Shown: positions 3,386 through 22,141, numbered from the stretch's first letter. The stretch: 43,289 nt of DNA from Candidatus Cloacimonadota bacterium (GCA_017995405.1 JAGOIY010000003.1:1-43289), one strand, 5' to 3'. A program made the numbers and translations. Notes: a model not told the origin generated them from the sequence alone.

Positions 3386-3421
3386 GTTTCCTCCTTATTT
3401 TCTATTGATTTATTAGTTTTA

Positions 3422-3445
3422 CCGGAACTGGAGATACCAGTTCCG
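3422..3445 (-). terminator. Stem-loop after guaD (possible terminator or attenuating hairpin, with no clear U-tract)
   Basis: CCGGAACTGG-AGATA-CCAGTTCCG forms a 9-bp perfect stem 43 nt downstream of the guaD stop. It is followed on the minus strand by GUAAAACUAAU. Confidence 0.4.
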
Positions 3446-3487
3446 CCCTTCATGGATGCAATAATCCTTCCAAAGCGGGAGCAGTGT

Positions 3488-4711
3488 TTAATCCTGGGAG
3501 TAAACTGTCCTGCCCCTGACTATGCAGCGGCAGGTCGTAAACTCCGCTCCATAGAAAAACAGACTCGATAAAAGCCCGGCATCTAAGCTGTGTCCGTCAG
3601 GTATCCTGAACACGCACAAATCAGCGTCTTTCCCAAGCTCCAACGACCCGATTCTTTCCTGCCAGCCCAAAATCGCAGCGGAAGCCATGGTCAAATGCCA
3701 CAAGAGGCGTGGAGGCGAGAGGGGACAGGCAGATTGGCGGTAGTTGGCCATCTGGGCATGATGTGGCATGCTGAGCGTGGTTCCAGCCCCGACGTCGCTT
3801 CCCAAGCCGATTCTGAGCCCAGCGTCCCACATTCTCTGGTAGGGAAACTCGCCACTCTTGAGGAAGAAATTGGAATCCGGGCAGTGGGCAATGGCCGTCT
3901 GAGTTTCTGCCAGAATCGCGATTTCCTCTTCCGAGAGGTGGATGGCGTGGCCCATGATGGTGTGGGGGCCAAGGATTCCCAGATCGGCATAGACCTGGGT
4001 GTAGGAAGCTTTGCCAAACAGCTCCTTAACCCAGGCGATTTCATCTTTGTTTTCTGATAAGTGGCTCTGGATAAAGGCACTGTGAGCAGAGGCGTATTCA
4101 CCGATGAGCTTCATAAGTTCAGTGGAACAGGTGGGGGCGAAGCGAGGGGTGAATATATAGTCCAGCAGGGTTGAGCGGTCATGCCATCGCTCGCGGAGGG
4201 CCACGCTGTTCTCATAGGCATAGGAAGTATCATGCAGCAAGGCATCCGGGCTGTTGCGGTCCATGAGGGTCATGCCGATCAAAGCTCTCGCTCCCAGCTC
4301 TTCCGCGACTTCAAAGGCCGCTTGGCAGGCCTGCCGGAATGGGGCAGTGTAGATCACGGTGGTAGTGGTGCCGGCGGCAAAGAGAGCCCGAAAAAAGTCC
4401 TTAGCGATCTCCAGAGCGTAATCCGTGTGGGCTGAAAGGGCCTCAGCAGGAAATATGTGCTTTTCCAGCCAGGGCAGAAGCGCAGGTTCAAAGCGCCCCC
4501 TTGCCCGGTATTGGGAAAGGTGGACGTGAAGATCGATAAACCCAGGCAACGCCATGCAATCGAGCGCGCTCTCAGCGTCCCGGTCTAGAGTGAGGTCATA
4601 AGGTCTGAGGGCTGATATGACACCATCATCGTAAGCGATCACGTGATCAGCCAGAAACTCGGCCCGATCAGGTGATATGGGATTGATGAGGTTAGTTCTG
4701 ATCTTGGGCAT
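3488..4711 (-). CDS. guaD: Guanine deaminase (amidohydrolase superfamily)
   Basis: The 407-aa product carries PGFIDLHVHLSQ, TPRFAPTCS, SENKDEIAWVKELF and GSDVGAGTT. These closely parallel E. coli GuaD motifs (PGFVDTHIHYPQ, TPRFAPTSS, ENKDEIAWVK, GTDIGAGTT). Confidence 0.85.
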   Translation of the reverse strand: MPKIRTNLINPISPDRAEFLADHVIAYDDGVISALRPYDLTLDRDAESALDCMALPGFIDLHVHLSQYRARGRFEPALLPWLEKHIFPAEALSAHTDYALEIAKDFFRALFAAGTTTTVIYTAPFRQACQAAFEVAEELGARALIGMTLMDRNSPDALLHDTSYAYENSVALRERWHDRSTLLDYIFTPRFAPTCSTELMKLIGEYASAHSAFIQSHLSENKDEIAWVKELFGKASYTQVYADLGILGPHTIMGHAIHLSEEEIAILAETQTAIAHCPDSNFFLKSGEFPYQRMWDAGLRIGLGSDVGAGTTLSMPHHAQMANYRQSACPLSPPRLLWHLTMASAAILGWQERIGSLELGKDADLCVFRIPDGHSLDAGLLSSLFFYGAEFTTCRCIVRGRTVYSQD

Positions 4712-7379: not shown

Positions 7380-7381
7380 AG

Positions 7382-8254
7382 CTAATCCTCCAGTTCCTTT
7401 AACAAGGTGGCAATATCCTCCGGGCTAAACAGGTAAGTGCTATTGCAGTAATGACAGACGGGCTCGATGCCGTCTTTCAGATCCCGAAGCTCATCCTTTC
7501 CCAAAGCCAGCAAGGACCTGGCAAAACGTTCCTTGGAACAATTGCAGCGGTAGCTGACAGGGTGAGCGGGCTTGAGGGTGTAATCCATATCCTTAAATAC
7601 AAAACGGTCGAAGATATCCTGCAGGCCCAAACCCATATCCATCAGATCTGAGAGGTTGGGTGTGAGATTCAGATTGTGGATCAGCGCTTCCGTCTTGTCA
7701 GGATCTGCAAAAGGCAGCTGTTGAATCATAAATCCTCCGCAAGCCCTGATCTGGGCTTCCCGGTCCACCAGAATTCCCAGCGATACCGCGCTGGGCACCT
7801 GTTCCGACTGCAGATAGAAATGGGCGAGGTCTTCCGCGATCTCACCGGTGACCAGTTCGGTGGAACCCATCCAAGGAGAGGTGCCCGGCAGTTGTTTGAT
7901 CACAGTCAGGGTGCCGTTGCCCAACTGCTTGCCGGGGAGAAAGTTGGCTTGGATGGCATCAAGCTGGAGAGAGGGGTTGCGGATATACCCTCTCAATTGG
8001 CCATAATGGTCGCAGATTACCAAACCGCCTTCCAGAGGACCGTCTCCGTCCACTCTGACACTCACTTCGCCGTTGTCGCTTTTTAGGTCAAGACTCAGGA
8101 GCGCCGCGGCACAAATCATCTTGCCCATCAGGATGGTGGCGATTGGAGACAGGTCGTGCAGATCACGCGCCCGCTGAGCCGTTTCAGTGGCTTCCACGGC
8201 AAAGATCCTGAAGCTGTCGCTGAGGGCCATTCCGCGCCAGAGAAGATCACTCAC
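7382..8254 (-). CDS. hslO: Hsp33 redox-regulated chaperone
   Basis: The C-terminal zinc centre is CNCSKERF...CHYCNSTY. The N-terminus (V)SDLLWRGMALSDSFRIFAV aligns with B. subtilis HslO MDYLVKALAYDGKVRAYA, so I prefer GTG 8254 (a GTGA overlap with the upstream stop) over the track's 8359 start. Confidence 0.85.
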   Translation of the reverse strand: MSDLLWRGMALSDSFRIFAVEATETAQRARDLHDLSPIATILMGKMICAAALLSLDLKSDNGEVSVRVDGDGPLEGGLVICDHYGQLRGYIRNPSLQLDAIQANFLPGKQLGNGTLTVIKQLPGTSPWMGSTELVTGEIAEDLAHFYLQSEQVPSAVSLGILVDREAQIRACGGFMIQQLPFADPDKTEALIHNLNLTPNLSDLMDMGLGLQDIFDRFVFKDMDYTLKPAHPVSYRCNCSKERFARSLLALGKDELRDLKDGIEPVCHYCNSTYLFSPEDIATLLKELED

Positions 8255-9723
8255 CGTGGCATCCAGTCTTTGCTGATAAGAGTGCCGGGATAGTACATGG
8301 AGAGAATGTCTGGATAGCTCCATCCCGATCTTGCCAGGCGTAAAACTCCAATTTGGCACATACCTACTCCGTGACCAGCACCTTTGCCTTTAACCACGAT
8401 TGTGGAGCCGGAACTGGCTATATAAAAAAAGGAAGACGGCAAGCCGCCAAAGGCCTGACGGATTTTGTACTCAGAGTCCAGAGTGACAGTTTTGCTGCCT
8501 GTGAAGCGCATTTGTAGAATCCTGCCGGAATGGCCTCTTTTGATTATCTCGATTTTGCTGAGCTTTGTGAGCCCGAGATTGGATGCGAGGCGGGTCCTGG
8601 AGATATCCCTTTTCCACTGCAGGGAGGATTTTTCCCAGTTGCTGGCTTCCGGATCATTAAGTTTGGAGTCCAGCCACAGCCGCGCTCCGCTTTCAGTGCT
8701 TAGATCAAGGCTGTCCGCAGCTTCTATGCAGGTGACTCCCATCAAATGTGAGATCGGCGCGCCTTTCCAGATATTGGCAGAGGAGTCGGTTTTACCACCG
8801 CAAGCGCTGTGATAGGTGGCATCAGCGATTCTGCCGTTGCTGATCAAGACTTCATGTTCCGTGGCCTGGACGGCGGTGATAATGTTGGCGTTGGAAAGAT
8901 GCTGACCCTTATATACCTGGCAGTGGGTGCTGTTGCAGAGGTCATAGCCATCGCCCTGGTGACGGTTGTAGAGCAGCAGGCTGACAGCGTGGGTGCGGGC
9001 AGCGATTGCCTGAGTTTTTAGCGCTTCAAGGGGAGCGCTGCTGCCAATCTCGTTTTGGATGACGCCGCCGACGTAGTTTTCCAAGGTGAGAAAATGAGTG
9101 ATGACCAGCTTTTCACCGATCGCTTTGATGATAAACTCTCCTCCAAAGGCCAGATTAAGTCCGCCGATCTGAATATCCCTATCGCTCTTGATCCTGAGGG
9201 GAGTCTCGAAATAGTGCTCGTTATTGCCAGCCAGGACTTTAACTGTGGCGTTGAGCATAGGGATCGCCTGCACCTGAGATCTGGGAATTCCAAGCTCTTC
9301 GGCATAGCGTTGCGCAGTGGCCTGGGTATTAAAGGAATCTGGCTCAAAGATAAGCTTTTCCTTCTTCAAAGCGAGCTTACCGTCTATCCAGGTAAAGCTC
9401 TGCCGCGTGGCAAAATCTCCGTCATCGCTGGCGGCTGTCAGAGGTTCGACTCTGTTCAACAGACCCCAAAAGGGTAGTTTGTCCCAATTCATGAAACTGA
9501 GTTTGAGATTGCCCTCCACCTGTTTGGAGATGGGAGAACCGATCTCCGTGATCGTGAAGGAGGGTGTTCTGGCGTCCCGGCTTTTCATCGTTATCTGAGT
9601 GCCGCTGTCCAGAAAAATCTCCAACCACAACTGGCCATCGATGAGCTCCGCGGCATATGCCTGGGTGGCAATCCCCAGCATCGTCACAAACAGGACCAGG
9701 CGGAGCACAAAGACGGGTTTCAT
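8251..9723 (-). CDS. SpoIID/LytB domain protein (peptidoglycan remodelling)
   Basis: 490 aa with a signal peptide. The motifs CNSTHCQVYKG and ATYHSACGGKTDS are characteristic of the SpoIID amidase-enhancer family. Confidence 0.8.
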   Translation of the reverse strand: MKPVFVLRLVLFVTMLGIATQAYAAELIDGQLWLEIFLDSGTQITMKSRDARTPSFTITEIGSPISKQVEGNLKLSFMNWDKLPFWGLLNRVEPLTAASDDGDFATRQSFTWIDGKLALKKEKLIFEPDSFNTQATAQRYAEELGIPRSQVQAIPMLNATVKVLAGNNEHYFETPLRIKSDRDIQIGGLNLAFGGEFIIKAIGEKLVITHFLTLENYVGGVIQNEIGSSAPLEALKTQAIAARTHAVSLLLYNRHQGDGYDLCNSTHCQVYKGQHLSNANIITAVQATEHEVLISNGRIADATYHSACGGKTDSSANIWKGAPISHLMGVTCIEAADSLDLSTESGARLWLDSKLNDPEASNWEKSSLQWKRDISRTRLASNLGLTKLSKIEIIKRGHSGRILQMRFTGSKTVTLDSEYKIRQAFGGLPSSFFYIASSGSTIVVKGKGAGHGVGMCQIGVLRLARSGWSYPDILSMYYPGTLISKDWMPR

Positions 9724-9730
9724 CGCTGCC

Positions 9731-11746
9731 TTACTTGATCACCGAGCCAGGCAGACAAGGACCCTGGGGCCCCACAACGGTGAGAGTGCCTTCAGAGTGG
9801 ACTGCCAGGATCATCCCGCGGGATTCGATGCCTCTGATCTTGCGGGGTTCCAGATTGACCACCATGGCCACCGATAGGCCAAGCAACTGCTCCGGCTCGT
9901 AGGATTCCGCGATGCCGGCCACCAGTTCCCTGACCTCGCTTCCGATATCCACTTTCAGACGCAGAAGCTTGTCGGTTTTGGGGACCCTGGAAGCTTCCAG
10001 GACTTTGGCTACTCTGATATCCAAAGCACTGAAATCGTCATAACTGATGGAGGGCTTGAGAGGGTCGCACGCGGGCTTTGAGGCCGTGTGAGCGTTTTGC
10101 AGTTTTGTCAGTTGGGCTTCCACCTGCTCGTCTGTGACCTTGCTGAAGAGGGGATGGGTGTCATGCAGAGTGATTGCCAAATCATTGTGCAAACTGGCAT
10201 CATCCCATGTTGCCGCCTCAGGCAGTCCCATCATCTGTCTCAGTCTGTTCATCGATCCTGGCAGGATGGGATACAACGCGATGCTGACCATAGCAAGCAG
10301 ATCGGCACATACTCGCAGAGTCTCAAGCACGTGTTCTCTGTCTTCTTTGATGGCGGCCCAGGGTTTCCGCTCGTCAAACCAGCGGTTTCCAAGCCTGGCG
10401 ATATCCATGATCAGGCGGGTGTTTTTCTTCACCTGATACTCCCGGAAGCCTTCATCTATTTGCTTCAGCAGGGCTTCAGCCTCCTCCAGAACGGATCGCG
10501 CGGCTGCGGAATAGCTAATGGGGGGTATGATACCATCGAAGTTCTTGACGCTGAAAGCGAAAACGCGGTTGGCCAGATTGCCCAGCACGTTGTTGAGCTC
10601 GCCGTTGATCCTTAGCTGGAAGTCTTTGAAGGAGAAATCACTGTCTCCTTTTTCAGGAGCGTTGACGGCCAGATAGTATCTCAGAAAGTCACCGGGAAAA
10701 TCTTTGGCAAACTCGTCCACCCAGATAGCCCAGTTGCGGCTGGTGGAGATCTTTTGCCCTTCCAGGTTCATAAATTCGTTGGCCGGGATGTCGTGAGGAA
10801 GGCAGTATGTCTGATTTTGTCCCATCAGCATGGCTGGCCAGATCAAGGCATGAAAGATGATATTGTCTTTGCCGATAAAGTGGATCAGTTGAGTCTCGGG
10901 ATCCAGCCAATAGTCTTTCCAGCGATCAGGTTGACCTAGATTGAGGGCCCATTCCACCGTGGATGAGATATAGCCTATAGGGGCGTCAAACCACACGTAG
11001 AGCACTTTTCCCTCTGCTTCAGGCAAGGGGACGGGAATTCCCCAACTGAGGTCGCGGGTGATGCTGCGCTCTATAAGCCCCTGGTCCAATAGGTTAAGCA
11101 TAAAATTGCGGACGTTTTCTTTCCAATAATCTTTGTGAGCTATCCACTCTCTGAGCTGCTCCCGAAAGTCATCCAGCTGGATAAACCAGTGTTTGGTATC
11201 ACGGACAACCGGCATGTTGCCACAGATCTTGCACTTGGGATCGATGAGGGTGACCGTGTCATAGATTTGACCGCAGGCGTCGCACTGGTCTCCTCTGGCA
11301 CCGGTGGCTTTGCAGCGTGGGCAGATGCCCTCCACGTAGCGGTCCGGGAGATAGCGTTTGTCGTGCTCGCAATAGAATTGCCGGGTCTCACGCGCCTGGA
11401 TGTGCCCCTTTTCATAGAGGTCCAGAAAGAAGCGTCGCGAGGTCTCGTGATGAGGAGGACGGGCAGTACCGGAGAAATTGTCAAACTGGATGTCGATAGC
11501 GTCAAATCCTGCTTTGATGCTGTCGTGATAGCGCTTGACCACCACATCTGGAGTCACGCCTTCCGCGTCCGCTGATATGGAAATCGGAGTGCCGTGCTCA
11601 TCGGTCCCACAGATATAGATCACATCCTGGTTGTGAAGACGCAGCCAGCGGACAAAGACATCGGCAGGCAAATAAGCACCTGCCACGTGGCCGACATGGA
11701 GTTTACCGTTGGCGTAGGGCAGAGCGCTGGTCACCAGATATTTCAT
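9731..11746 (-). CDS. metG: Methionine--tRNA ligase with a C-terminal tRNA-binding (Trbp111/EMAP-like) domain
   Basis: MKYLVTSALPYANGKLHVGHVAG contains the HIGH motif. A Zn knuckle CPRC...CDAC is present, and the C-terminal tRNA-binding domain reads LDIRVAKV...VVNLEPRKIRG. ATG 11746 forms an ATGA overlap with the lysC stop, so the track's upstream extension to 11788 is rejected. Confidence 0.9.
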   Translation of the reverse strand: MKYLVTSALPYANGKLHVGHVAGAYLPADVFVRWLRLHNQDVIYICGTDEHGTPISISADAEGVTPDVVVKRYHDSIKAGFDAIDIQFDNFSGTARPPHHETSRRFFLDLYEKGHIQARETRQFYCEHDKRYLPDRYVEGICPRCKATGARGDQCDACGQIYDTVTLIDPKCKICGNMPVVRDTKHWFIQLDDFREQLREWIAHKDYWKENVRNFMLNLLDQGLIERSITRDLSWGIPVPLPEAEGKVLYVWFDAPIGYISSTVEWALNLGQPDRWKDYWLDPETQLIHFIGKDNIIFHALIWPAMLMGQNQTYCLPHDIPANEFMNLEGQKISTSRNWAIWVDEFAKDFPGDFLRYYLAVNAPEKGDSDFSFKDFQLRINGELNNVLGNLANRVFAFSVKNFDGIIPPISYSAAARSVLEEAEALLKQIDEGFREYQVKKNTRLIMDIARLGNRWFDERKPWAAIKEDREHVLETLRVCADLLAMVSIALYPILPGSMNRLRQMMGLPEAATWDDASLHNDLAITLHDTHPLFSKVTDEQVEAQLTKLQNAHTASKPACDPLKPSISYDDFSALDIRVAKVLEASRVPKTDKLLRLKVDIGSEVRELVAGIAESYEPEQLLGLSVAMVVNLEPRKIRGIESRGMILAVHSEGTLTVVGPQGPCLPGSVIK

Positions 11747-12909
11747 GACTCCTCCCCAATAAAGGCATTGTGAAGCAGTCTGACGCATTCTTTCACCTGA
11801 CGGCTTGGCATCATCATTTCGATACTGCGCTCCGTGTGGTTGACTCTGATCAGTTCCATGCCTGCGCAGATTTCCAATATCCGGGCCAGAAATCCCGGAT
11901 CGAGGTTGATGCCTACTCCCACGGGAATCACAAAGCCGATGCCCGTCTCTTTGGACAGAGGACTGATCCCGTGTGATCCCAGGAGATAATCAATCTCGTT
12001 TTCATATTTAGCTTCCACGATCAGCTCGAGGCGCTCAGCTTCCAGATAGTATCTAAATATCTCAAAACTCCAGCTTTTCAGCAGGCTTGTGAGGACCTCG
12101 CTGCCCGGCAGCAGGTAGCGCAATAAATCCTCTTTGTGGGCGATGGCGTTTATAACTCTTAATTCCATATTGGTTTCCGTGTTCTTTTTCAGCATAGTCC
12201 CAGGCTGGAAGCTAAAAGATGACTTCACTTCTACCGGGATGCCGTATTTGAGGGCAAATTCCACCGCTCTGGGATGGATGACTTTAGAGCCTCCGTATGC
12301 CAGAGTGAGCATGATGTCGGGGTCGATCGAGGCCAGCAAGCGCGGCCTTTCGACCACTCTGGGATCGGCGCTGTAAACCCCCTCCACGTCTGTGAATATC
12401 TCGCATTTATCGGCCTTGAGATAGCCGGCCAAGGCAACCGCGGATGTGTCTGAGCCGCCTCTGCCAAGCGTCGTGATCTCCTTTTGGAGGCTGACACCCT
12501 GGAATCCGGCCACGATCACGATCTTGCCTTTCTCGAGCTCGCTGAGGATGCGAAAGGCATTCACATTGAGGATGCGCGCGTTGCCATGATGGTCATCGGT
12601 AATGATGCCACTTTGGGACCCAGTGAAAGAAATCGCTTCCAACCCGCATTCCTGCAAGGCAAAGGAGAGCATGGACATGCTGATCCTTTCACCCGCGGTG
12701 AGCAGCATATCCATTTCCCTGCGATTAGGCCTTGCCGATACAGCGTGTGCCATAGCCCACAGCTCGTCTGTGGTCTTCGCCATGGCGGACACGACCAGCA
12801 CCAACGAGTCTTGCTCGCGCTTCTCAGCGGCAATCTTTTCCGCGATGTTCTTGATCAGACCGATACTCCCCACGGAAGTACCGCCAAATTTCTTTACAAT
12901 CATTGCCAT
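11743..12909 (-). CDS. lysC: Aspartate kinase (monofunctional, with ACT domains)
   Basis: MAMIVKKFGGTSVGS matches the aspartokinase N-terminus. GRGGSDTSAVALA is present, and the C-terminal part is ACT-like. Confidence 0.85.
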   Translation of the reverse strand: MAMIVKKFGGTSVGSIGLIKNIAEKIAAEKREQDSLVLVVSAMAKTTDELWAMAHAVSARPNRREMDMLLTAGERISMSMLSFALQECGLEAISFTGSQSGIITDDHHGNARILNVNAFRILSELEKGKIVIVAGFQGVSLQKEITTLGRGGSDTSAVALAGYLKADKCEIFTDVEGVYSADPRVVERPRLLASIDPDIMLTLAYGGSKVIHPRAVEFALKYGIPVEVKSSFSFQPGTMLKKNTETNMELRVINAIAHKEDLLRYLLPGSEVLTSLLKSWSFEIFRYYLEAERLELIVEAKYENEIDYLLGSHGISPLSKETGIGFVIPVGVGINLDPGFLARILEICAGMELIRVNHTERSIEMMMPSRQVKECVRLLHNAFIGEES

Positions 12910-12997: not shown

Positions 12998-13022
12998 AAA
13001 AAAAGGGAGCCGAAGCTCCCTT
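12998..13022 (-). terminator. Rho-independent terminator of the caspase/FGE operon
   Basis: The minus strand reads AAGGGAGC-UUCG-GCUCCCUUUUUUUC, 25 nt downstream of the TAG at 13047-13049. Confidence 0.8.
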
Positions 13023-13046: not shown

Positions 13047-15116
13047 CTAATACTTACGCGCCACCCTGAAACCCATGAAGGCATTGGTTGTTGGGGTGAT
13101 GCTGGATCGATAGATCACAGTGCACAGAGAAGGCGTATCAGAGTATCCTCCCCCTCTGTAGCAACGGCTGGAGCCACTCGTTGCTCCGGTGTAATTAGTA
13201 TAGCTGCCGGTTGGGTATGCAGCGTAGATATCCCAGCACCATTCACGAACGTTGCCACTCATCAGGTGGGTATCCACTTCATTGACCGGTTTACTGGCTA
13301 CATCCCAGGTTGAGTTTAAAGAGTTATTGTTGTAATATGCGACATAAGCTACGTCGTTGGAACCACTGTAGGTATAATTGTGAGAGGAATTACCTCCCCG
13401 CGCCGCAAAGTGCCACTCCGCTTCAGTAGGTAATCTGAAGCCGCTGGCGTTCCAGTTGCAACTCAAATAAATATGGTTTCCCGAGTTGGTATCCCAGCCT
13501 GAGGGCCAAAGGTCCGGATCTTCCACATTGTTGTATTTGTAACAGGGGCTCAGGCCAAAATGAGAGCTCAACCGGTTACAAAATTCGATGGCTTTAAACC
13601 AGCTAACATTGTAAACGGGATGAAAAACCCCAATTCCTGCTCCTGAAGAAGGATTTGAGCCCATAATGTTCTGATAGAGTGCCTGAGTGATCTCAGTCTT
13701 GCCAATATAGAATGAGCTGAGAGTCATATTGCCGGTACCGTTGTTAAAAGTTCCACCAGCCACATACTCGTCAAACATATAGGTAGCCCTGATCACCGCG
13801 CTGGGTTCCCAGGAGCCGTAATGCGCCTGGGCTTTGATGATGGTGGGCTTGGAGATATTGATCTGGCCGGTGTACAGCGTAGATGACGGTGTGGGATTGC
13901 TGCCGTCGGTGGTGTAACGTATTGCGGCATTGGTGGTGGCAGAACCGATTGCCAGATTTACGGAGACCTGGTAGGTTCCCTGGGCGATGTTGAAGTTGGG
14001 ATTAGCTGCCCGCATTGTATAACTCGCGGTAGCAATCTCGCTTGGTGTGAGACCTGTCTTCCAGGCTTTGGCTTTGAGGGTGCAGATGTTGCTGATCGTG
14101 AGAGCTCCGGTATAGAGCGTGGAGGAAGTGCTGGGCTCAGTGCCGTCGAGGGTGAAGCGGATCGTGGAGTTGGCTGTAGAGCAGCTGATCGTGGTAGTGA
14201 ATGTATTGTTGTATACACCCGTCAATTTCTGAATCACAGGGGTGGCAACCGTGGTGCTGATCGTGTATGTCTTGCTGATGACATCACTGTTGCTAAAACC
14301 AGATTTTACCGCTATCGCTTTGATTGTGGTGCTTTGGCTGAAGTTGATGGGACTGCCGTAAACCGGCGACGATGATGACGGAATGCTGCCGTTGGTGGTG
14401 TAATGAATTGTGGCCCCAGCAGTCGCGCAGGTAAGCGTGCAGGTTTGGGCAGTTTCATAAGTACCCTCGGCGAGTGAGAAGCTGGGATTGAGCGGTTTCA
14501 AGATATAACTGTGAGTCACCACAGTGCTGGGTGTGCGGCCCGCGCAGACGGCGATCGCCTTGATCGTAGCATTGGTCTGGGTGACATTGTAGGGAGGGGT
14601 GTACAGCGGCGAGCTGGCATTGGGAGTGGGGCCATTGACGGTATAGCGGATCTGAGCGCCCGGAGTGGTGGAATGTATCCATAGACCGAAGGTATTGTTG
14701 TAGGTGCCGCTCAGATGCGAGAATGAAGGAGCGGCTGTATTCAGCACCATGTTTAAACTGATCTGCGCGTGAGATCCGTTGTAGTTCTCCCGGAAGGGAT
14801 AGACCCGATACTCATAGCTCCCCTGTTGTGTAATGGAGTGGTCCCAGCAGAAGGTGCTGTTTTTGCCCACGCTTTTGTATCCCGTTTGCCAGGAGCCGCC
14901 ATTGACGCGGCGATCGATCTTGTAGCCGGCTTCGATGTTGCAACGGTCCGTCCAGTTGAGGCGAATACTCTCTCCCGACAACTGATATTGAAGGCCATAA
15001 GGGGCAAGCAGATTGGATTGAATATGCTCAGGATCTACGGGATTGGTGAATTCCTTGTTCATGCATCCCGCCAGGAGCAGCAGGACACTGATCGCGTACA
15101 GGAGTATTCTCTTCAT
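13047..15116 (-). CDS. Lipoprotein with an FN3-like domain, four CHB_HEX_C-type repeats and a C-terminal FGE-sulfatase (SUMF1/C-type-lectin-fold) domain
   Basis: The lipobox is MKRILLYAISVLLLLAGC. Four ~80-aa repeats span aa 131-449 and share the pattern GTY...A.IRYT.DGS.P..SS.LY.G.I......IKA.A. The FGE-type C-terminus reads FRLPTEAEWHFAARGG...SGNVREWCWD...RGGGY...GFRVA. I prefer ATG 15116 with a GGGAG Shine-Dalgarno (SD) site, though GTG 15122 is also possible. Confidence 0.8.
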   Translation of the reverse strand: MKRILLYAISVLLLLAGCMNKEFTNPVDPEHIQSNLLAPYGLQYQLSGESIRLNWTDRCNIEAGYKIDRRVNGGSWQTGYKSVGKNSTFCWDHSITQQGSYEYRVYPFRENYNGSHAQISLNMVLNTAAPSFSHLSGTYNNTFGLWIHSTTPGAQIRYTVNGPTPNASSPLYTPPYNVTQTNATIKAIAVCAGRTPSTVVTHSYILKPLNPSFSLAEGTYETAQTCTLTCATAGATIHYTTNGSIPSSSSPVYGSPINFSQSTTIKAIAVKSGFSNSDVISKTYTISTTVATPVIQKLTGVYNNTFTTTISCSTANSTIRFTLDGTEPSTSSTLYTGALTISNICTLKAKAWKTGLTPSEIATASYTMRAANPNFNIAQGTYQVSVNLAIGSATTNAAIRYTTDGSNPTPSSTLYTGQINISKPTIIKAQAHYGSWEPSAVIRATYMFDEYVAGGTFNNGTGNMTLSSFYIGKTEITQALYQNIMGSNPSSGAGIGVFHPVYNVSWFKAIEFCNRLSSHFGLSPCYKYNNVEDPDLWPSGWDTNSGNHIYLSCNWNASGFRLPTEAEWHFAARGGNSSHNYTYSGSNDVAYVAYYNNNSLNSTWDVASKPVNEVDTHLMSGNVREWCWDIYAAYPTGSYTNYTGATSGSSRCYRGGGYSDTPSLCTVIYRSSITPTTNAFMGFRVARKY

Positions 15117-15118
15117 TC

Positions 15119-17245
15119 TCACTCTCCCAGTTTATACTGCCGGTAAGCTCTGTCGATGCTCTTGTAGGTCGAGCTTGTCTTGGTGGCAGAGAATATGTAG
15201 TTAGCCAGGAAAAACACATCGGCTCCCAACGTGACATAGTAGTATTTTTTCAGTTGATTGTAGCGGTCCCGAAAACTCTGTGCTTCACTGGGACTCATAG
15301 TATTCATGTAGTCGTTGTAATTGTTTTCGGCAAAGTAATATGTGACTGCCGCGGCGGCTGTGGTTCCCAGAATGGCCAACACCGAGCTGTTGCGATACAG
15401 CTTCCAGGCACCCAGTTTTCTCAGCATGGCTTTGTCGATTGGGTCCAGTTTGAGCTCAGGCATTTCAGACAGGCGATTGGGCTTGACTTCCACTTTAAAA
15501 CTGCGGGGAATGTAGCCCCATCGGTCAGCTTGCAGCACATATCCACCCGAGTAGAGAGTCATGGAATTCTTGTATTTGATCTCTGATTTGCTGCGGTCGT
15601 CCACCAGGGTGACGCTGATTTCAGGATCGACCTTCTTGATTTTAAACTGACCGGAAGATATCTTGTCGAGCTTGACGAAGACGTTGTTGTCTATACTGTT
15701 AGAGAGCTTGACACTTTTCGAGACCGGGAAGTAGTCCTTGAGCTCAACACTGATCAAGTATTCACCAGGAGGATACCTGCCAATCAGTGGATCCACCGTC
15801 AGTGGTGTAACCCCCAATTTCATGCCGTTGAGCGAGACGACAGCCCCGCTGGGTTCGGAAGTCACCGTAATCCCGCAGTAGTTTGAAAACAGCTTGGTTT
15901 TGATTTTTTTTCCGGAGACATCTGGCCTGATATCCATTTTTTGGGTGACGTGGTCCGGTTTGCTGATCGTGATTGAATAAGTCTTATCTGTGTCGCTGGC
16001 AAAGATATAGTTACCGAAAGTGATGTTATCCGGAAATCCTGATATGTTGATGGAAGCTGAACTGTCGCAGGAAAGCTCGGTCCACAGCTTGTAGAGCGAG
16101 GAACCTACATCCCGGAAGCTGAAGTGGATATCTATCGTTTCGCCGATGGAAACACCCACCTGGCGGCTCAAAATTCCCTTTGAACCCACAAAATCCACCT
16201 GATGGATTCCAGGCGCCAGATCGCGCTTTGAAATCTGCAGGATGGCCGTGATCGTCTCCACAAACACGCCATCCACATACACCGATCCAGAGTCGTCTGC
16301 GGTCATGCGGAAGGCTCCCGCCCGCGTTTCAAGTTCCAGAGAGGGGGGCGGCACATAAGCTGGAGGTCTGGTTTGTTGTGGAGTAATCGGTACCGCATCC
16401 TGTTTGAGTGCGAACACAAAATCGCCTTTGTCCAAAGCAATGTTGGCAATCTTGCCATATTTGGGATGCTGGCCACCCCCGGAATAGTTGACCACCTCGT
16501 TTTCCAGATAGAATCCTAATTCCTCGCCGGTGATATAGTTGTCTTTGTTGGTATCGGCGTAGCCTTTGCTGAGCCCGTCCACCAAAGTGGCGCGAAAAAT
16601 ACTCTGGTCCGGAACGGTTTCTTCCGCGGCGCCGGCAGTGATGAACTGGCGCACATCTTCCTTGGTTTTCTGAGAGATAATCTGAGGAGCGGCCCTGCGA
16701 GTGGTGAACACCGTGCCGGAAAAACAGCTGTCAAAAAACATCAGCACATGCTTGGACTGGATCAATTCTGCGAATTCGTTTACCCGGGTCATGGATATGG
16801 CTTTAGACCTGAAGCCGCTGGGATTCCCTTGCAGCATGGGAGTGTCGACAGGCAGGATATATCCCAGTTCTCTGCCTCCCGCCATCCTTTCCGTTTCTCC
16901 GTGACCGGCAAAATAAAAGAGCAGAGCGCGCTCGCGGTCTTTGCCATATTCATCGACCATCTCGTTGAAGAGGGTGATCATATCCGAGCTCTTGAGGTTG
17001 AATTTCTTGATTACCCTGATCCCTAAGCCCTCAAATGTCTCGGCGATGGCTTCCACGTCCTTGATCGCTCCCGGGAGCTTGCGATAGTATTGGTAATCGC
17101 TGTTACCTATAACAATAGCCACATATTCAGAGTACAATTGAACGCTCTCTCCAGTGGGCATCTTGATCGAAATGCCGCCAAACAGAGAGCCGCACAAGCA
17201 AATAATTAGTAATGCCAGCGCTGATGTCTTCACCTTTCCTCCCAT
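15119..17245 (-). CDS. Exported caspase-family (peptidase C14) protein with an EF-hand-like loop, PEGA/Ig-like modules and a C-terminal TM hairpin
   Basis: The N-terminus is signal-like (KTSALALLIICLCGSLFGG). Dyad motifs are LLFYFAGHGE (His115) and VLMFFDSCFSG (Cys174). Other elements are DTNKDNYITGEE (231-242) and the PEGA signature VTSEPSGAVVSLNGMKLGVTPL. Two hydrophobic helices lie at aa 621-640 and 668-687. Confidence 0.8.
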   Translation of the reverse strand: MGGKVKTSALALLIICLCGSLFGGISIKMPTGESVQLYSEYVAIVIGNSDYQYYRKLPGAIKDVEAIAETFEGLGIRVIKKFNLKSSDMITLFNEMVDEYGKDRERALLFYFAGHGETERMAGGRELGYILPVDTPMLQGNPSGFRSKAISMTRVNEFAELIQSKHVLMFFDSCFSGTVFTTRRAAPQIISQKTKEDVRQFITAGAAEETVPDQSIFRATLVDGLSKGYADTNKDNYITGEELGFYLENEVVNYSGGGQHPKYGKIANIALDKGDFVFALKQDAVPITPQQTRPPAYVPPPSLELETRAGAFRMTADDSGSVYVDGVFVETITAILQISKRDLAPGIHQVDFVGSKGILSRQVGVSIGETIDIHFSFRDVGSSLYKLWTELSCDSSASINISGFPDNITFGNYIFASDTDKTYSITISKPDHVTQKMDIRPDVSGKKIKTKLFSNYCGITVTSEPSGAVVSLNGMKLGVTPLTVDPLIGRYPPGEYLISVELKDYFPVSKSVKLSNSIDNNVFVKLDKISSGQFKIKKVDPEISVTLVDDRSKSEIKYKNSMTLYSGGYVLQADRWGYIPRSFKVEVKPNRLSEMPELKLDPIDKAMLRKLGAWKLYRNSSVLAILGTTAAAAVTYYFAENNYNDYMNTMSPSEAQSFRDRYNQLKKYYYVTLGADVFFLANYIFSATKTSSTYKSIDRAYRQYKLGE

Positions 17246-17518
17246 CAGTATGTGCTCTTAAGCTTTTTTAAAACAGCCGTTTAACCTGATCGACGGCGCC
17301 AATTACCAGTCAAGCGACTGCCTTCCAATCACGCTATAAATCTAATGCGCGCACTGTGAACTGCCTGCGCGATTCTGTCAACATATTTCTTTGCGGAATT
17401 GAGGCGATAAACTTGGAGCAGAAAAGATTATATATTTATCACTGGCTGAATGGCATGCTTATCTTGCAAAAACTGAAGCGGATGTGATGAATGATCTTCC
17501 ACAGGAATAAAATGAATG

Positions 17519-17680: not shown

Positions 17681-17706
17681 AAAAAAAGCCCCTCGGTTGA
17701 GGGGCT
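17681..17706 (-). terminator. Rho-independent terminator of cobB
   Basis: The minus strand reads AGCCCCUC-AACC-GAGGGGCUUUUUUU, 12 nt after the TAA at 17718-17720. Confidence 0.8.
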
Positions 17707-17717
17707 TCTACAGATGC

Positions 17718-18437
17718 TTATGTCAATATACGCAGCCATTTATCCACGAGGCCAGGCAGGATGTCACCTGCCTTGCCCTGATGGAATTCATCGATAAAGG
17801 AGCTGTTATGAGGCGGATCGAGATTGACCGCCACGGTTTTGGCACCGAAATATCTGGCAGTCATCACGAATCCGGCGGCGGGATAGACCGTTCCACTGGT
17901 TCCCACGATCAGAAAGAGATCGCTCTTTTTGAGAAGCTGCTCTATCCTCCCAAGCTGGTAGGGAATTTCACCAAACCACACAATATCAGGCCTCAGCAGC
18001 ATTTCACAAGCGCTGCAGTAGGGGAGAGGGTTATCGAGATCTATTTCGGCGGTTTGATGGATCTTGCCGCAGCCGGTGCAGAAACAGCGGTGCAGGCTGC
18101 CGTGCATCTCGATAAGGTTCTTGTTGCCAGCGTCTTCATGCAGGCCGTCCACGTTCTGCGTGACCAGCCAGAAGCGGTCTCCAAGGGCCTCCTCCATCCT
18201 TTTCAAAGCCAGGTGGCCTGGATTGGGCTGAGTTTCAAGCGCTTGACGAAAGCGTTGCCGGTAAAAACTCCACACCAGTTGAGGGTCGTTTTGAAACCCT
18301 TCCGGTGAGGCGACATCCTCAACCCGATGGTCTTCCCAAAGGCCTCCAGCATCGCGAAAGGTGCGGATTCCGCTTTCCGCGCTGATTCCGGCTCCGGTGA
18401 GCACCAGGACGCGAGATTGAGTATCAAGATGCTTCAT
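17718..18437 (-). CDS. cobB: NAD-dependent protein deacylase (sirtuin, CobB type)
   Basis: Motifs present are GAGISAESGIRTFRD, QNVDGLHE and HGS. The Zn ribbon is CTGCG...CSAC. The 239-aa size is typical of bacterial CobB. Confidence 0.85.
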   Translation of the reverse strand: MKHLDTQSRVLVLTGAGISAESGIRTFRDAGGLWEDHRVEDVASPEGFQNDPQLVWSFYRQRFRQALETQPNPGHLALKRMEEALGDRFWLVTQNVDGLHEDAGNKNLIEMHGSLHRCFCTGCGKIHQTAEIDLDNPLPYCSACEMLLRPDIVWFGEIPYQLGRIEQLLKKSDLFLIVGTSGTVYPAAGFVMTARYFGAKTVAVNLDPPHNSSFIDEFHQGKAGDILPGLVDKWLRILT

Positions 18438-18562: not shown

Positions 18563-21500
18563 TCACTTCATCAACATCATCTTACGGGTTTTGAGCTCGG
18601 TTCCGCTTCTCAGCTTGTAGAGATACACCCCGCTGGCGACACTGCGTCCCGCGTTGTCCAAACCGTTCCATACAACACTATGCTGCCCTTTGGCAAGCTC
18701 GCCGCTGACCAGGGTCTTCACTCTCTGGCCTTTGAGGTTGAAGATCGCGAGTTCCACCTCGCCAGAGGCGGGAACGCTGAAACTGATGGTGGTGCTGGGG
18801 TTGAAGGGGTTGGGATAGTTGGCGTTCAAATCGAAACGGAGAGGTGAGACTGCGGGGTCTGAGTTGTCCACATATTCAGATTCCACTCTGATGTCGTCCA
18901 CATACCAGCCTTCGCCTGTAACGGCTCCATCTGTTCCAAACAGGAAGCGGAATCGAGCGTTGCCGGAATAGCTGGAGAGATCGAAAGTGGCTTCTGTCCA
19001 GGCGAAAGAACCAGACCAGCAATTGGTGTTGGCGGCAAAAGGCGAGGCATTGTTTTGATAAATGCGATGAGTGTATCCGCCCACGGGAGAGATTTGAATC
19101 CATTCTCCGCCATCGATACTCATCTGCACCAGTCCACCGTCCCAAGCATAAGTTGGAGTGCTGTGAGCCTCGGCATCCATCCAGTGGGAGAATTTCAGCA
19201 TGCTGTTCATTCCCAGCATAAATTCCGGAGAATCAAGAGCTCCCAAAGCGCTGTTGCCATACTGACCGGAACCGGAACCACCGAATTTCATGGAGTAACT
19301 GCCACCGGGGGTGTTGTTGCGATAAGTGGAACGATGCCACTGGTTTACGAAGCCAGGGTTGGGGGCGGATGAATTCCAGCCGAGCATGTCGGCTTCAAAG
19401 CTGTAACTCAGCATACCGAGATGGATGATAATGTTTCCCTCCACGGAAGGCCCGTTTTCAGCGCTGAGGATATAACCAATCGTGATGTTGGAACCCAATT
19501 CCATTGTTTCCGGGATTTGAGCGCTAAACGCTGCAGTGGCAGTGGATTGTCCTTCAGCAGGTACGGGTGGGAGCGTGACTTCGAAGTTGGAGAGATTGAC
19601 GCTGGGCGTGTCGCAAAAGAGGATCATGAAAGGCGTGTAGGCGTTTCCGCTGCCCTGATTGGCGAGGCTGATGCTGATGGCTGGCGTCTGGCCAGGATAG
19701 ATGATCGGGGTGGGATTCACAAACTGATAGGAGGTGATCGCCAGATTGGGGGCGTTCAGAGTGAGCAATTGTGTATTGGTGGAGCTGTAGCCGTCAAAAT
19801 CGGTTACGAAGCTGAGCGTGACGGTGCTGCCATCCTCATAATTACCTCTGATGCCGATCTGGAAGGCGTCTGTGATCACGATTGAATCTCCAGCTGCGAT
19901 GGCGTTGAAAGAGATGGGGTCTGACAGGACCTGGATGTTGGGAGACGCGCAAGTCAAAGTAACGGTGCCGCTGGCGGTTTGATCGAGGCTTCCCAGGTTT
20001 TTGAGCACGAAGCTCAGATTCAGGTTTTCACCGGTATGTAAGAGGCCATCGGCATCGTTGTGGGTGGCGTTGATGGCTACCACATACGGCATCTGACTGG
20101 CCTGAACGTTGATCAGGTTTTGATAGGGATAGAAATTGGGGGCAGTGATGTAGATCTCATATTGTCCAGGTGTAAGTCCTTGCAAGAAGCTTACATACAC
20201 TTGGCCAGAAGCGTCCGCGGAGCCTTCAAAGATAATAGTGCTTCCAGATTTGATCCTGAGATTGGCATAAGGAGCGTTGGTGGGTATCTGGTATCCGAGG
20301 ATGGACATACTCCACATCGGTGGCATCTGGGCGACGATCTGCTGAGGAGTGTCTGACCAAACGCTGAGGGCAGGATCGCCAATCAGATTGGTTTCATATG
20401 TCACCCAGTACATCACAGGCTGGTTTGTGATGAAGGGAATGTTGTCTATCTTGCTGTCCACCAGCGTGAAGCCCAGATCGTGAATGTTTTCGCCAAAAAT
20501 GGCGTCGATATATTGGCGGTGCAGATACTGGGAAGCCCCATCCGTGGAACCCTGCATGCCCCATCCGTAGCGTGAGTGGGCTATCATAGAGGCCGCGGAG
20601 GTGGCGATGCCGGTGAATTTTTCTGCTATACAATCGGTGGTGTAGCTGCCGGGGTTTGTGTTGCGGTTGTCAAAAGCGCCGGCGTAGCAACCTTGGGTGA
20701 AATAGAGGGAGAAATTGTGGTTGGCACCGTTGTTGGAGATCGAAGTGGCGGTCACTTGATTGTTTGAAAGCCTCATGGCGTAAGTAGTATTGGAGTGGCC
20801 GAGGTGGTTCACGAGATTGGCGCCCTGAGACAACATGGGCCGAATCTCAGAGGGACCCCAGGCTTCAGAATAGCCGTAGGTGCGATCGTATAATGTGCTG
20901 ATGTTCCAGGAGGTTGGCACTCCCACGGTGGTATAACCATGGGTGGAAGCTCCCCCTATCATCTCGTCCATATAGTCTCCACCCCAGGTGGGACCGTCCC
21001 AAAGCCATTCACCTGTGAAGAAAGCAGTTTTGGTTTCAGCTTCAACGGGGGCAACGTGATACATCATGATCTTGTTGATCTGGTTGGCGATCTCGGTATC
21101 GTTGTTATAGCAGATTCTCCCAAGCGCCAGCTCTGGAGCGAGGTCAGCTTCATACTGCTCTCCCCAGTTGGCGTCGCCGTCATTGTTCCAATTTCCGTCC
21201 AGGCAGGCGTAATACATATCAGCGGGGATATCGGCATCCGTTTGCTGGCCGCCGGTAAAGTTCACATAGAAGCCACGATGGGGGATCATATCTGTGTCCG
21301 CAGCCAGTAAAACATAGCGCAGGGAATTGGTCTGATACATCTGGATGATGTAGTTGCGGATCTTGTCCTGGCTGTCCTGTCCCGCTGTTTGAGAGAGAAT
21401 TTCCTGCACCGGCTTCATCATCACGTTCAAGCCGCGTTGGGAGTAAAAATCTGCCAGGGGAAGCCATTGATCGTACTTGGCGCTGTCTATGATAATAAGG

Positions 21501-22141
21501 TACTCCACTCCGCTGGTGCGGGTCTGATAGCGTGGCAGGGCGTCCTGGTTGTTGATCGCATTTTTAAGGCTCTGAGTGGTAAATTCGTTTTGTTTCAGAA
21601 GTTCCAGAGCGGCAGTTGATTTGGCGCTGGGAGCGCTCTCCACCGTCACTGTTACCGAGGCGTAGAAAATCAGCTCGTGGCGTGCGGGGTAGTACTCAAA
21701 GGGGCATACGGCACTGAAGTTGATTGGATGTCCGGCGAGGAAATGCGTGTTGACACCGTTGTGCGGCTGGGTGGGCCAGACAGTATCGGACCCGTAAATG
21801 GCAGGATTCGGTCCCACCGGTGCCGGCAAATCCGTCTGCGAAAAGGGGTATTGAGCGGGGATGGGCTTCAGGGGCTTGTCAAGCGTATAAATCTGAGGTT
21901 GAGCCAGCTTGACGCTGATTGAGACGGCTTCTTCGCCCACGGGAAGCAGAATTTTGGTGCCAAGCCATGGCAACGCGGGATCGCCAGGCTCGCCATATAG
22001 CTGACCGCCAGCAAGTTCTATAACGCTGACATTGGCTTCCGTCTTTATTGCTGGGAACGCGGGACGGAGTTCCAGACTGGTCGCTGCGGTCAGGAGGGCA
22101 ACGACACACACCAGAATAATCACACTAAGAGTTCGCTTCAT
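18563..22141 (-). CDS. Gingipain-type cysteine peptidase (family C25) with Ig-like modules, a jelly-roll (MAM/choice-of-anchor-J-like) domain and a T9SS C-terminal sorting domain
   Basis: 1192 aa with a signal peptide. The C25 core includes YLIIIDSAKYDQWLPLADFYSQRGLNV, with candidate His in NHLGHSN and candidate Cys in YFTQGCYAGAFD. The jelly-roll domain ends in GEGWYVDDIRVE. The Por tail is NYPNPFNPSTTISFS...IFNLKGQRVKTL...GVYLYKL...RKMMLMK. Confidence 0.8.
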   Translation of the reverse strand: MKRTLSVIILVCVVALLTAATSLELRPAFPAIKTEANVSVIELAGGQLYGEPGDPALPWLGTKILLPVGEEAVSISVKLAQPQIYTLDKPLKPIPAQYPFSQTDLPAPVGPNPAIYGSDTVWPTQPHNGVNTHFLAGHPINFSAVCPFEYYPARHELIFYASVTVTVESAPSAKSTAALELLKQNEFTTQSLKNAINNQDALPRYQTRTSGVEYLIIIDSAKYDQWLPLADFYSQRGLNVMMKPVQEILSQTAGQDSQDKIRNYIIQMYQTNSLRYVLLAADTDMIPHRGFYVNFTGGQQTDADIPADMYYACLDGNWNNDGDANWGEQYEADLAPELALGRICYNNDTEIANQINKIMMYHVAPVEAETKTAFFTGEWLWDGPTWGGDYMDEMIGGASTHGYTTVGVPTSWNISTLYDRTYGYSEAWGPSEIRPMLSQGANLVNHLGHSNTTYAMRLSNNQVTATSISNNGANHNFSLYFTQGCYAGAFDNRNTNPGSYTTDCIAEKFTGIATSAASMIAHSRYGWGMQGSTDGASQYLHRQYIDAIFGENIHDLGFTLVDSKIDNIPFITNQPVMYWVTYETNLIGDPALSVWSDTPQQIVAQMPPMWSMSILGYQIPTNAPYANLRIKSGSTIIFEGSADASGQVYVSFLQGLTPGQYEIYITAPNFYPYQNLINVQASQMPYVVAINATHNDADGLLHTGENLNLSFVLKNLGSLDQTASGTVTLTCASPNIQVLSDPISFNAIAAGDSIVITDAFQIGIRGNYEDGSTVTLSFVTDFDGYSSTNTQLLTLNAPNLAITSYQFVNPTPIIYPGQTPAISISLANQGSGNAYTPFMILFCDTPSVNLSNFEVTLPPVPAEGQSTATAAFSAQIPETMELGSNITIGYILSAENGPSVEGNIIIHLGMLSYSFEADMLGWNSSAPNPGFVNQWHRSTYRNNTPGGSYSMKFGGSGSGQYGNSALGALDSPEFMLGMNSMLKFSHWMDAEAHSTPTYAWDGGLVQMSIDGGEWIQISPVGGYTHRIYQNNASPFAANTNCWSGSFAWTEATFDLSSYSGNARFRFLFGTDGAVTGEGWYVDDIRVESEYVDNSDPAVSPLRFDLNANYPNPFNPSTTISFSVPASGEVELAIFNLKGQRVKTLVSGELAKGQHSVVWNGLDNAGRSVASGVYLYKLRSGTELKTRKMMLMK

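Follow-up and report, generated by a model that had tools for sequence, protein, structure and literature searches.

An exported caspase homologue and a C-type-lectin-like lipoprotein form a conserved, translationally coupled gene pair in Cloacimonadota

Discussions of bacterial caspase homologues mostly cast them as death or immune effectors of the cytoplasm. Here we describe a caspase homologue that carries an export signal and is encoded together with a lipoprotein in Cloacimonadota, key syntrophs in anaerobic digesters. The analyzed stretch of DNA (the window) comprises 43,289 nt from Candidatus Cloacimonadota bacterium (GCA_017995405.1 JAGOIY010000003.1:1-43289), and the two-gene module occupies positions 13,047-17,245 on its minus strand, with gene 1 (15119-17245) encoding the exported caspase homologue and gene 2 (13047-15116) a lipoprotein whose C-terminal head has the fold of formylglycine-generating enzymes (FGE). 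We lean, with moderate confidence, towards reading the pair as two halves of one envelope-located recognition-plus-protease machine, the split form of secreted signal-peptide-caspase-(PEGA)-FGE proteins. Covalent fusion of the same parts in relatives, strict one-way adjacency of the two genes, coupled translation and shared export are the grounds on which we regard the products as two subunits of one machine.

The open reading frames (ORFs) of the module are tightly joined. At the junction (CTGGGAGAG-TGA-GA-ATG, 15116-15133, minus strand), the gene 1 stop codon TGA (15121-15119) precedes the gene 2 ATG at 15116 by two bases, and a GGGAG Shine-Dalgarno-like site lies inside the 3' end of gene 1, 7 nt upstream of that ATG. 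An alternative gene 2 start, GTG 15122, overlaps the gene 1 stop codon. Both ORFs and this junction had been placed in the same way in a preliminary description of the locus, made from the sequence alone. A lipoprotein gene of the type CHB_HEX(1-5)-FGE lies directly downstream of the caspase-hairpin gene in seven of seven Cloacimonadota loci with downstream DNA (the window, L098, L001/L009, L003-5, L007/8, L010 and L089), which represent six distant lineages (33-59% identity) and, with L098, one close relative (87%). Six of these loci have stop and start codons that overlap or are separated by 2-11 nt (ATGA overlaps in L001, L010 and L098, gaps of 4-11 nt in L003 and L007), the exception being L089 with a 65-nt gap. 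The recurrence of the two-ORF split in seven loci rules out a frameshift artefact. The flanking genes differ among the six distant lineages; L098 keeps the cobB context of the window. The nearest full-length relatives of the caspase homologue all belong to Cloacimonadota, at 33-43% identity with one further relative at 87%, and a protein lacking PEGA (P0010) is 59% identical over the caspase domain.

Relatives outside the phylum mostly carry the same parts in a single chain. There, the same caspase clade is 45-52% identical over residues ~25-285 (P0012-P0035), and caspase-(PEGA)-FGE in one ORF was identified at 41 of 75 other genome loci. One relative, P0012, is a 635-aa single chain with caspase, CHB_HEX and FGE domains, the last of which shares 61-63% identity with the stand-alone partner lipoproteins at L001 and L010. 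The preliminary description had proposed a sensor-plus-caspase pair split into two co-transcribed, exported polypeptides, and both the adjacency and these fusions support it. The synteny, the catalytic dyad and the topology on which it had staked this proposal likewise came out in its favor. The exported caspase clade is large, comprising 1,901 cluster representatives (clustering at 50% identity; E <= 1e-30). Of 120 homologues from the clade, at least 97 have an N-terminal export leader, and the caspase domain begins ~20-50 residues into nearly all top matches of an exhaustive search. Extracytoplasmic location thus characterizes the whole clade and is no peculiarity of this locus. Two candidates for a split arrangement outside Cloacimonadota were rejected: L077 looks like a frameshifted fusion, and the caspase gene of L070 is flanked by kinase-FGE genes. 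The latter locus (1013-8841, from a Cytophagia metagenome-assembled genome, MAG) places a same-clade caspase amid three Ser/Thr-kinase-FGE-sulfatase genes and represents another FGE-sensor/caspase combination. A phage origin was rejected as well, as viral contigs hold only 26%-identical metacaspase-like matches, located on contigs of giant-virus MAGs (GVMAG).

The caspase-FGE-sulfatase architecture itself has been known from genome surveys since 2012, under the name 'metacaspase-FGE-sulfatase', with a suspicion even then that the N-terminal transmembrane (TM) helix is a signal peptide (Asplund-Samuelsson et al. 2012, PMC3501461). These fused proteins share with the gene 1 product an N-terminal leader and beta-hairpin, the invariant His and Cys residues, a Ca-type loop and PEGA modules after the protease, and they use an FGE fold as second functional part. 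They differ in that our pair has its FGE part on a separate lipoprotein, with a CHB_HEX stalk of its own, and in that a helical hairpin anchor replaces the FGE domain at the caspase C-terminus. In the literature searched, we found neither experimental work on the fused or the split form nor a description of the split, hairpin-anchored, lipoprotein-partnered form. The latter is thus moderately new, set against a fused architecture that is known already and uncharacterized.

The gene 1 product comprises 708 aa when translated from ATG 17245, or 704 aa from GTG 17233, which is the start used in NCBI records and has a GGAGG just upstream; a signal peptide results from either start. The chain consists of signal peptide, C14 domain, Pro-rich linker, four beta-sandwich modules and helical hairpin. 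The signal peptide (17174-17245, minus strand; residues 1-24, MGGKVKTSALALLIICLCGSLFGG) reaches a Kyte-Doolittle peak of 2.4. It is followed by the caspase domain (16391-17173, residues 25-285), which matches Peptidase_C14 (PF00656) with 75.7 bits against a cut-off of 21.4 over residues 42-195. His115 (FAGHGE, codon 16901-16903), Cys174 (DSCFSG, codon 16724-16726) and Asp172 (FDSCFSG) are invariant in alignments of 10 orthologues and of 48 family members. The MALT1 paracaspase is the best PDB sequence match, His115 aligning with its catalytic His region 'YYAGHGY', and Foldseek likewise puts MALT1 caspase-Ig3 on top (E 3e-13), followed by caspases and metacaspases. The intact C14 core claimed in the preliminary description is hence well founded. 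In the AlphaFold2 model, with a mean predicted local distance difference test score (pLDDT) of 86 and values above 90 over the caspase domain, a leader helix (residues 8-22) precedes a small beta-hairpin and the caspase fold (25-280), to which a disordered Pro-rich linker (287-307) is attached.

Asp172 forms, together with Cys174, what we take to be the D-x-C motif of meta- and paracaspases, and is a candidate residue of an acidic S1 pocket. Characterized C14 members other than caspases proper all cleave after Arg or Lys (PMC5756287). The His115/Cys174 dyad and the Asp172-x-Cys174 arrangement, which resemble those of meta-, ortho- and paracaspases, suggest a probable Arg/Lys specificity at the P1 position for the gene 1 protease. 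An RR(A/S)AP motif is conserved 9-10 residues after Cys174, in a lower-confidence loop of the model (R183-R184), and is a candidate autocleavage site. Within the same domain lies an EF-hand-like loop (16520-16555, minus strand; residues 231-242, DTNKDNYITGEE, DxNxDxxxTGEE). It fits the 12-residue pattern via D231, N233, D235 and E242, is flanked by helices 216-226 and 240-254 in the AlphaFold2 model and has D231, D235, T239 and E242 invariant among the 10 orthologues and the 48 family members. The preliminary description had also called this loop EF-hand-like; no Pfam EF-hand model matches residues 231-242. A possible consequence of the loop would be Ca dependence of the protease.

C-terminal of the linker, four beta-sandwich modules of PEGA/Ig-like type follow (15437-16324, minus strand; residues 308-603; pLDDT 80-95). 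Such modules had been claimed before, and the strand pattern of the AlphaFold2 model, over residues 310-600, supports all four, whereas Pfam calls one PEGA domain (15662-15871, residues 459-528, 45 bits) and no Pfam family matches residues 290-460. The chain ends in a pair of long antiparallel helices (15125-15433, minus strand; residues 605-707), modeled as helices 605-648 and 652-707, in which W614, A639, Y643, Y646 and L673 are invariant in orthologues. The earlier designation as TM hairpin stands insofar as the helix pair is conserved. Its hydrophobic cores are marginal, with a Kyte-Doolittle mean of 1.48 in the first helix and of less than 1.2 in the second, so that membrane insertion is no more than likely and the topology uncertain; Pfam has no family for the hairpin. 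We consider it a probable membrane anchor. It is not a signalling domain: it encloses only ~30 residues and leaves no cytoplasmic domain, and the earlier suggestion that the protein could signal inward finds no support. Apart from a fragment of this protein itself, a word-indexed search for other relatives of the PEGA-hairpin tail recovered a single weak PEGA match.

Gene 2 encodes 689 aa, arranged as lipobox, N-terminal beta domain, four CHB_HEX_C_1 repeats and FGE-fold head. Its N-terminus (MKRILLYAISVLLLLAGC) matches the lipobox pattern [LVI][ASTVI][GAS]C via LAGC (15063-15074, minus strand), and at least 90% of 45 homologues keep the lipobox Cys18; the Pfam LPAM_1 model stays below its cut-off (14.5-17.3 against 20 bits). 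The adjoining beta domain, previously called FN3-like, has no Pfam match and a low-confidence model (pLDDT ~40-60). The stalk (13776-14741, minus strand; ~residues 126-447, pLDDT >90) is matched in four stretches each by the Pfam models CHB_HEX_C_1 (E 4e-68) and Fn3_assoc (E 5e-58), in line with the four repeats of the preliminary description, which had also named the lipobox and the FGE-sulfatase fold correctly. It had further taken the repeats to be of carbohydrate-binding type. The copy number of CHB_HEX_C_1 varies from 1 to 5 among orthologous partners, as expected of a spacer stalk, and carbohydrate binding is not supported. The beta-sandwich modules of the caspase homologue and the CHB_HEX repeats may thus both serve as stalks, with copy numbers that vary freely between orthologues.

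The head of the lipoprotein (13050-13733, minus strand; ~residues 462-689, pLDDT >90) matches FGE-sulfatase (PF03781) with 111 bits, which, together with weak EgtB and SenA matches, could point to a genuine FGE or an oxidase related to it, with the caspase or a sulfatase as the protein to be modified. Several observations make this highly improbable. The best PDB sequence match of the head is TvpA of Treponema denticola (2Y3C), with a phmmer E value of 1.8e-39, against ~1e-6 for true FGEs, and Foldseek aligns it with TvpA at a template-modeling (TM) score of 0.76 and 34% identity, against ~0.6 for the FGEs 1Y1E and 2Q17. Opposite 'GGSYLCHDSYC' of the Streptomyces FGE (2Q17/6MUJ) stands 'GGGYSDTPSLC' in the head, so that the first of the two catalytic (copper-binding) Cys residues is replaced by Asp. 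Unlike EgtB, the lipoprotein has no DinB domain, and Pfam scans of the window ORFs revealed no sulfatase gene nearby. The identity as a true FGE enzyme was accordingly rejected, one catalytic Cys being missing. Because of this replacement, and because TvpA is far closer than true FGEs, we consider the head a C-type-lectin-like binding module of TvpA type and not an enzyme, as judged from its sequence. Column entropy among 45 paralogues is highest in residues 656-680 (13077-13151, minus strand; GGYSDTPSLCTVIYRSSITPTTNAF), a variable face that stands between conserved scaffold residues and corresponds to the catalytic Cys-pair region of FGEs.

TvpA is a variable C-type lectin belonging to a diversity-generating retroelement (DGR), and shares with the gene 2 product the C-terminal 'GGxW...YC...R...P...GFR' scaffold. 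Gene 2 could accordingly be an active DGR target that couples the caspase to a hypervariable receptor. This idea draws on TvpA as the nearest solved relative, on the C-terminal face, which keeps its scaffold residues and varies between them, and on the presence of DGRs in Cloacimonadota (PMC11661182). Also in its favor, tandem paralogues at L001 differ mainly at codon positions 1-2 in their last ~150 nt. In the 43-kb window, to which the search for DGR components applied, there is no template repeat, no repeat of any kind involves 13047-13260, and no reverse transcriptase (RVT domain) was found among the 25 ORFs scanned with Pfam, which are all non-nested ORFs of at least 150 aa except 42280-42825. 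Moreover, 15 variants from different samples agree in every position of residues 640-689, the differences lying in the repeats; the codons of the variable face are not limited to NNC/NNT, and at four paralogue loci that were sampled, the surrounding 5-8 kb contain no reverse transcriptase. Without template repeat, reverse transcriptase, population hypervariation or restricted codons, we rejected gene 2 as an active DGR target and hold the idea to be very improbable. The gene 2 product further departs from TvpA by its four CHB_HEX repeats and its pairing with a protease. The tandem partner lipoprotein genes of L001 (9200-9740 and 11498-12038) deserve separate mention. They are 85-89% identical up to the last ~150 nt. 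From there on, conserved scaffold codons alternate with codons that differ mostly in positions 1-2, a pattern reminiscent of DGR variable regions or of strong diversifying selection; that locus yielded no template repeat. Diversification of the lectin face, by whatever means, is thus a feature of the family.

Taken together, a mechanism can be outlined for the recognition-plus-protease machine. The gene 1 product would be exported via its Sec-type signal peptide, and its active-looking C14 protease would sit on the four-module beta-sandwich stalk, probably tethered by the hairpin to the outer face of the inner membrane. The lipoprotein, made by coupled translation, would be lipid-anchored and carry its lectin head on the Ig-like CHB_HEX stalk. 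The variable C-terminal face may then bind a protein or glycan, as ligand or as substrate, and capture by the head could either present the target to the protease or activate the latter. Limited proteolysis of an extracytoplasmic target, of self or foreign origin, would be the outcome. Certain points weigh against this reading. It presupposes physical contact of the two proteins, and the Arg/Lys specificity assigned to the protease derives from a single motif. The hydrophobicity of the hairpin is marginal, and a positively charged tail misfits a simple out-in-out topology. Furthermore, none of four CHB_HEX-FGE lipoproteins sampled irrespective of caspases has a caspase neighbor, which indicates that the lipoprotein family also works without a caspase. 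Finally, the L007 partner has an FGE domain whose nearest counterpart (74%) belongs to one of these caspase-unlinked paralogues, arguing against strict co-evolution of partner FGE domains.

The last two observations are what would be expected if the genes were merely co-transcribed and the lipoprotein were a general envelope lectin acting independently of a membrane caspase that happens to share its operon. Caspase-unlinked paralogues and the lack of strict co-evolution fit such independence; against it stand the immediate downstream position of the partner, and the coupling of stop and start codons, in each of the seven caspase-hairpin loci for which downstream DNA exists, and the repeated covalent fusion of both domain types within the same caspase clade, which together make it improbable in our view. 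A different role, for which we see a somewhat better though still poor chance, is nutritional surface proteolysis, in which the lectin and its repeats would hold protein or glycoprotein debris for degradation by the caspase as part of the exoproteolysis of an amino-acid-fermenting cell. A C25 gingipain-like protease gene with a type IX secretion system (T9SS) sorting domain (18563-22141, minus strand; Pfam) lies 1.3 kb upstream of the pair, the window holds more T9SS cargo genes, and CHB_HEX-FGE lipoproteins form a large family in the phylum that often stands beside such genes. The C25 neighbor is, however, not kept in distant lineages, the caspase homologue lacks a T9SS sorting domain and seems hairpin-tethered rather than released, C14 enzymes perform limited proteolysis, and the fused form is present in many phyla of other lifestyles. 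A functional link to the C25/T9SS protease or to cobB was rejected, both being kept only in L098 (87%) and not in distant lineages.

Just as unlikely as the nutritional role appears envelope defense or suicide, where the lectin would sense a foreign structure at the surface or in the periplasm (for instance a bacteriocin, a contact-dependent toxin, or a tail or ejection protein of a phage) and the caspase would destroy the invader or the cell's own envelope proteins, aborting infection. FGE-type lectins do have sensor roles in conflict systems of the STAND and DGR-linked kinds, for some of which a periplasmic location is predicted (PMC10907252, PMC13581612), the Candidatus Syntrophosphaera pair is clustered with fused caspase-FGE, caspase-WD40 and AAA_14/DUF4143 genes, and the lectin face is hypervariable between paralogues. 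The window pair, on the other hand, resides among the housekeeping genes for methionyl-tRNA synthetase (MetRS), aspartokinase and cobB, shows no GC anomaly and has no relatives on phage contigs. Unlike an arms-race receptor, its lectin face is invariant in the 15 population variants. Among known anti-phage systems, PADLOC returned just a 25.4-bit generic caspase match and a 22.6-bit match of the repeat region to DUF499; membership in a known defense system was rejected on account of these weak and generic matches. The cell-death or conflict role that the preliminary description brought in from comparative genomics finds no support at this locus, given the housekeeping surroundings and the lack of a convincing defense-system match. 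Somewhat less remote, and still doubtful, is a broader trans-envelope surveillance, in which the lipid-anchored TvpA-like lectin would capture a foreign or damage ligand in the periplasm or at the surface and activate a Ca-dependent inner-membrane caspase. Such a device would be an extracytoplasmic counterpart of cytoplasmic sensor-caspase immunity, and the exported clade would then comprise envelope immunity or quality-control proteases and not intracellular death executioners.

The pair was further compared with characterized and predicted systems. In the literature, FGE-sulfatase domains count as ligand sensors that are linked with caspases, kinases and STAND NTPases (PMC3501461, PMC8195603, PMC10907252, PMC13581612). 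STAND/Avs-type and ternary conflict systems (PMC8195603, PMC10907252, PMC13581612) likewise combine an FGE-fold ligand-binding module with a caspase-family protease, whereas our pair has no NTPase switch and no Death-like or adaptor domain, places both parts outside the cytoplasm and stands in a housekeeping context without defense-island neighbors. With MALT1 (caspase-Ig3) and the meta- and orthocaspases MaOC1 and TbMCA2, the gene 1 product shares the caspase-hemoglobinase fold, the His-Cys dyad and an Asp two residues before the Cys, and with MALT1 also an Ig-like module after the protease. The characterized members of that group are intracellular, in contrast to the exported gene 1 product, which is just 12-18% identical to them and adds an EF-hand-like loop, a probable membrane hairpin and a lectin partner. 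Like PorK/GldK and GldJ of type IX secretion, the gene 2 product is an FGE-fold lipoprotein, and it comes from an FCB-group (Fibrobacteres-Chlorobi-Bacteroidetes) organism with T9SS cargo proteins. PorK/GldK membership was rejected for the gene 2 product: its TIGR03525 score is 48.5 bits against a cut-off of 350, just a ~30-residue stretch aligns with PorK structures, and architecture and neighbors differ.

The pair is of interest because it shows a large caspase clade that is exported and joined, by fusion or operon, to a non-enzymatic lectin of the retroelement-diversified kind. The split form separates recognition from the protease subunit, and each part can thus be tested alone for binding, activation and substrate choice. 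A phylum-wide envelope protease system also bears on the surface biology of Cloacimonadota. If the system did sense foreign molecules outside the cytoplasm, sensor-caspase immunity would extend to the periplasm.

The module is bounded on both sides by intrinsic-terminator-like hairpins on the minus strand, as claimed before. Upstream, an 11-pair stem with T-run (17684-17709) ends the SIR2/cobB gene (17718-18437) and is also kept in the 87% relative L098; downstream, an 8-pair stem with T-run (13003-13022) ends the module. A putative promoter can be read from the sequence at 17353-17381 (minus strand), consisting of TTGACA (17381-17376), a 17-nt spacer and CACAGT (17358-17353). By eye, the ~170 nt nearest the caspase gene (17246-17415) align well with L098 and have far more invariant columns than the distal spacer, which largely does not align. 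This region looks like the module's own promoter followed by a leader of ~100 nt. The predicted fold of the leader is no better than that of shuffled sequences (z = -0.02), and the window gave no Rfam match that would indicate a regulatory RNA in the 470-nt upstream spacer.

The preliminary description had missed the lectin nature of the FGE head, the clade-wide extracytoplasmic location and the existence of a large paralogous lipoprotein family, most sampled members of which have no caspase neighbor. Two of these members have other neighbors. P0129 (41% identity; L090, 2902-7462), which among full-length homologues stands nearest to the lipoprotein, has no adjacent caspase, and its gene lies 443 nt upstream of one for a 663-aa signal-peptide-PEGA(n)-hairpin protein with the same C-terminal hairpin and no protease domain, suggesting that the PEGA-hairpin stalk forms an independent module. 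The unlinked CHB_HEX-FGE lipoprotein P0209 (L100, 7084-9575) has a gene for a small outer-membrane beta-barrel (OMP_b-brl_2) 60 nt upstream, whose product is a possible different partner for the family.

In Candidatus Syntrophosphaera (L003, 1-11030; L004; L005), the orthologous pair is found within a caspase-rich cluster that holds a fused caspase-FGE gene (~500 aa) and an AAA_14/DUF4143 gene. An ORF of 32 aa immediately precedes the caspase-PEGA gene there, and the opposite strand carries a caspase-WD40 gene of 1040 aa; L004 adds a caspase and a DUF4384 gene. No counterpart of the 32-aa ORF was recognized in the window spacer. The Cloacimonadaceae contig of L007 contains a long intergenic tandem array of the heptamer AATTGAG (2297-2526). 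Within the window, two 41-nt stretches, 80-83% identical, are common to ORF 341-3385 (minus strand) and the C25 gene, at 489-597 and 18711-18816. Both fall within T9SS C-terminal sorting domains (Por_Secre_tail/FlgD_ig), and the window thus has at least two T9SS cargo genes. With its first ATG, the MetRS ORF (9731-11788) overlaps the aspartokinase ORF (11743-12909) by 46 nt (11743-11788); the internal start MKYLVTSALPY is more likely to be the start of MetRS.

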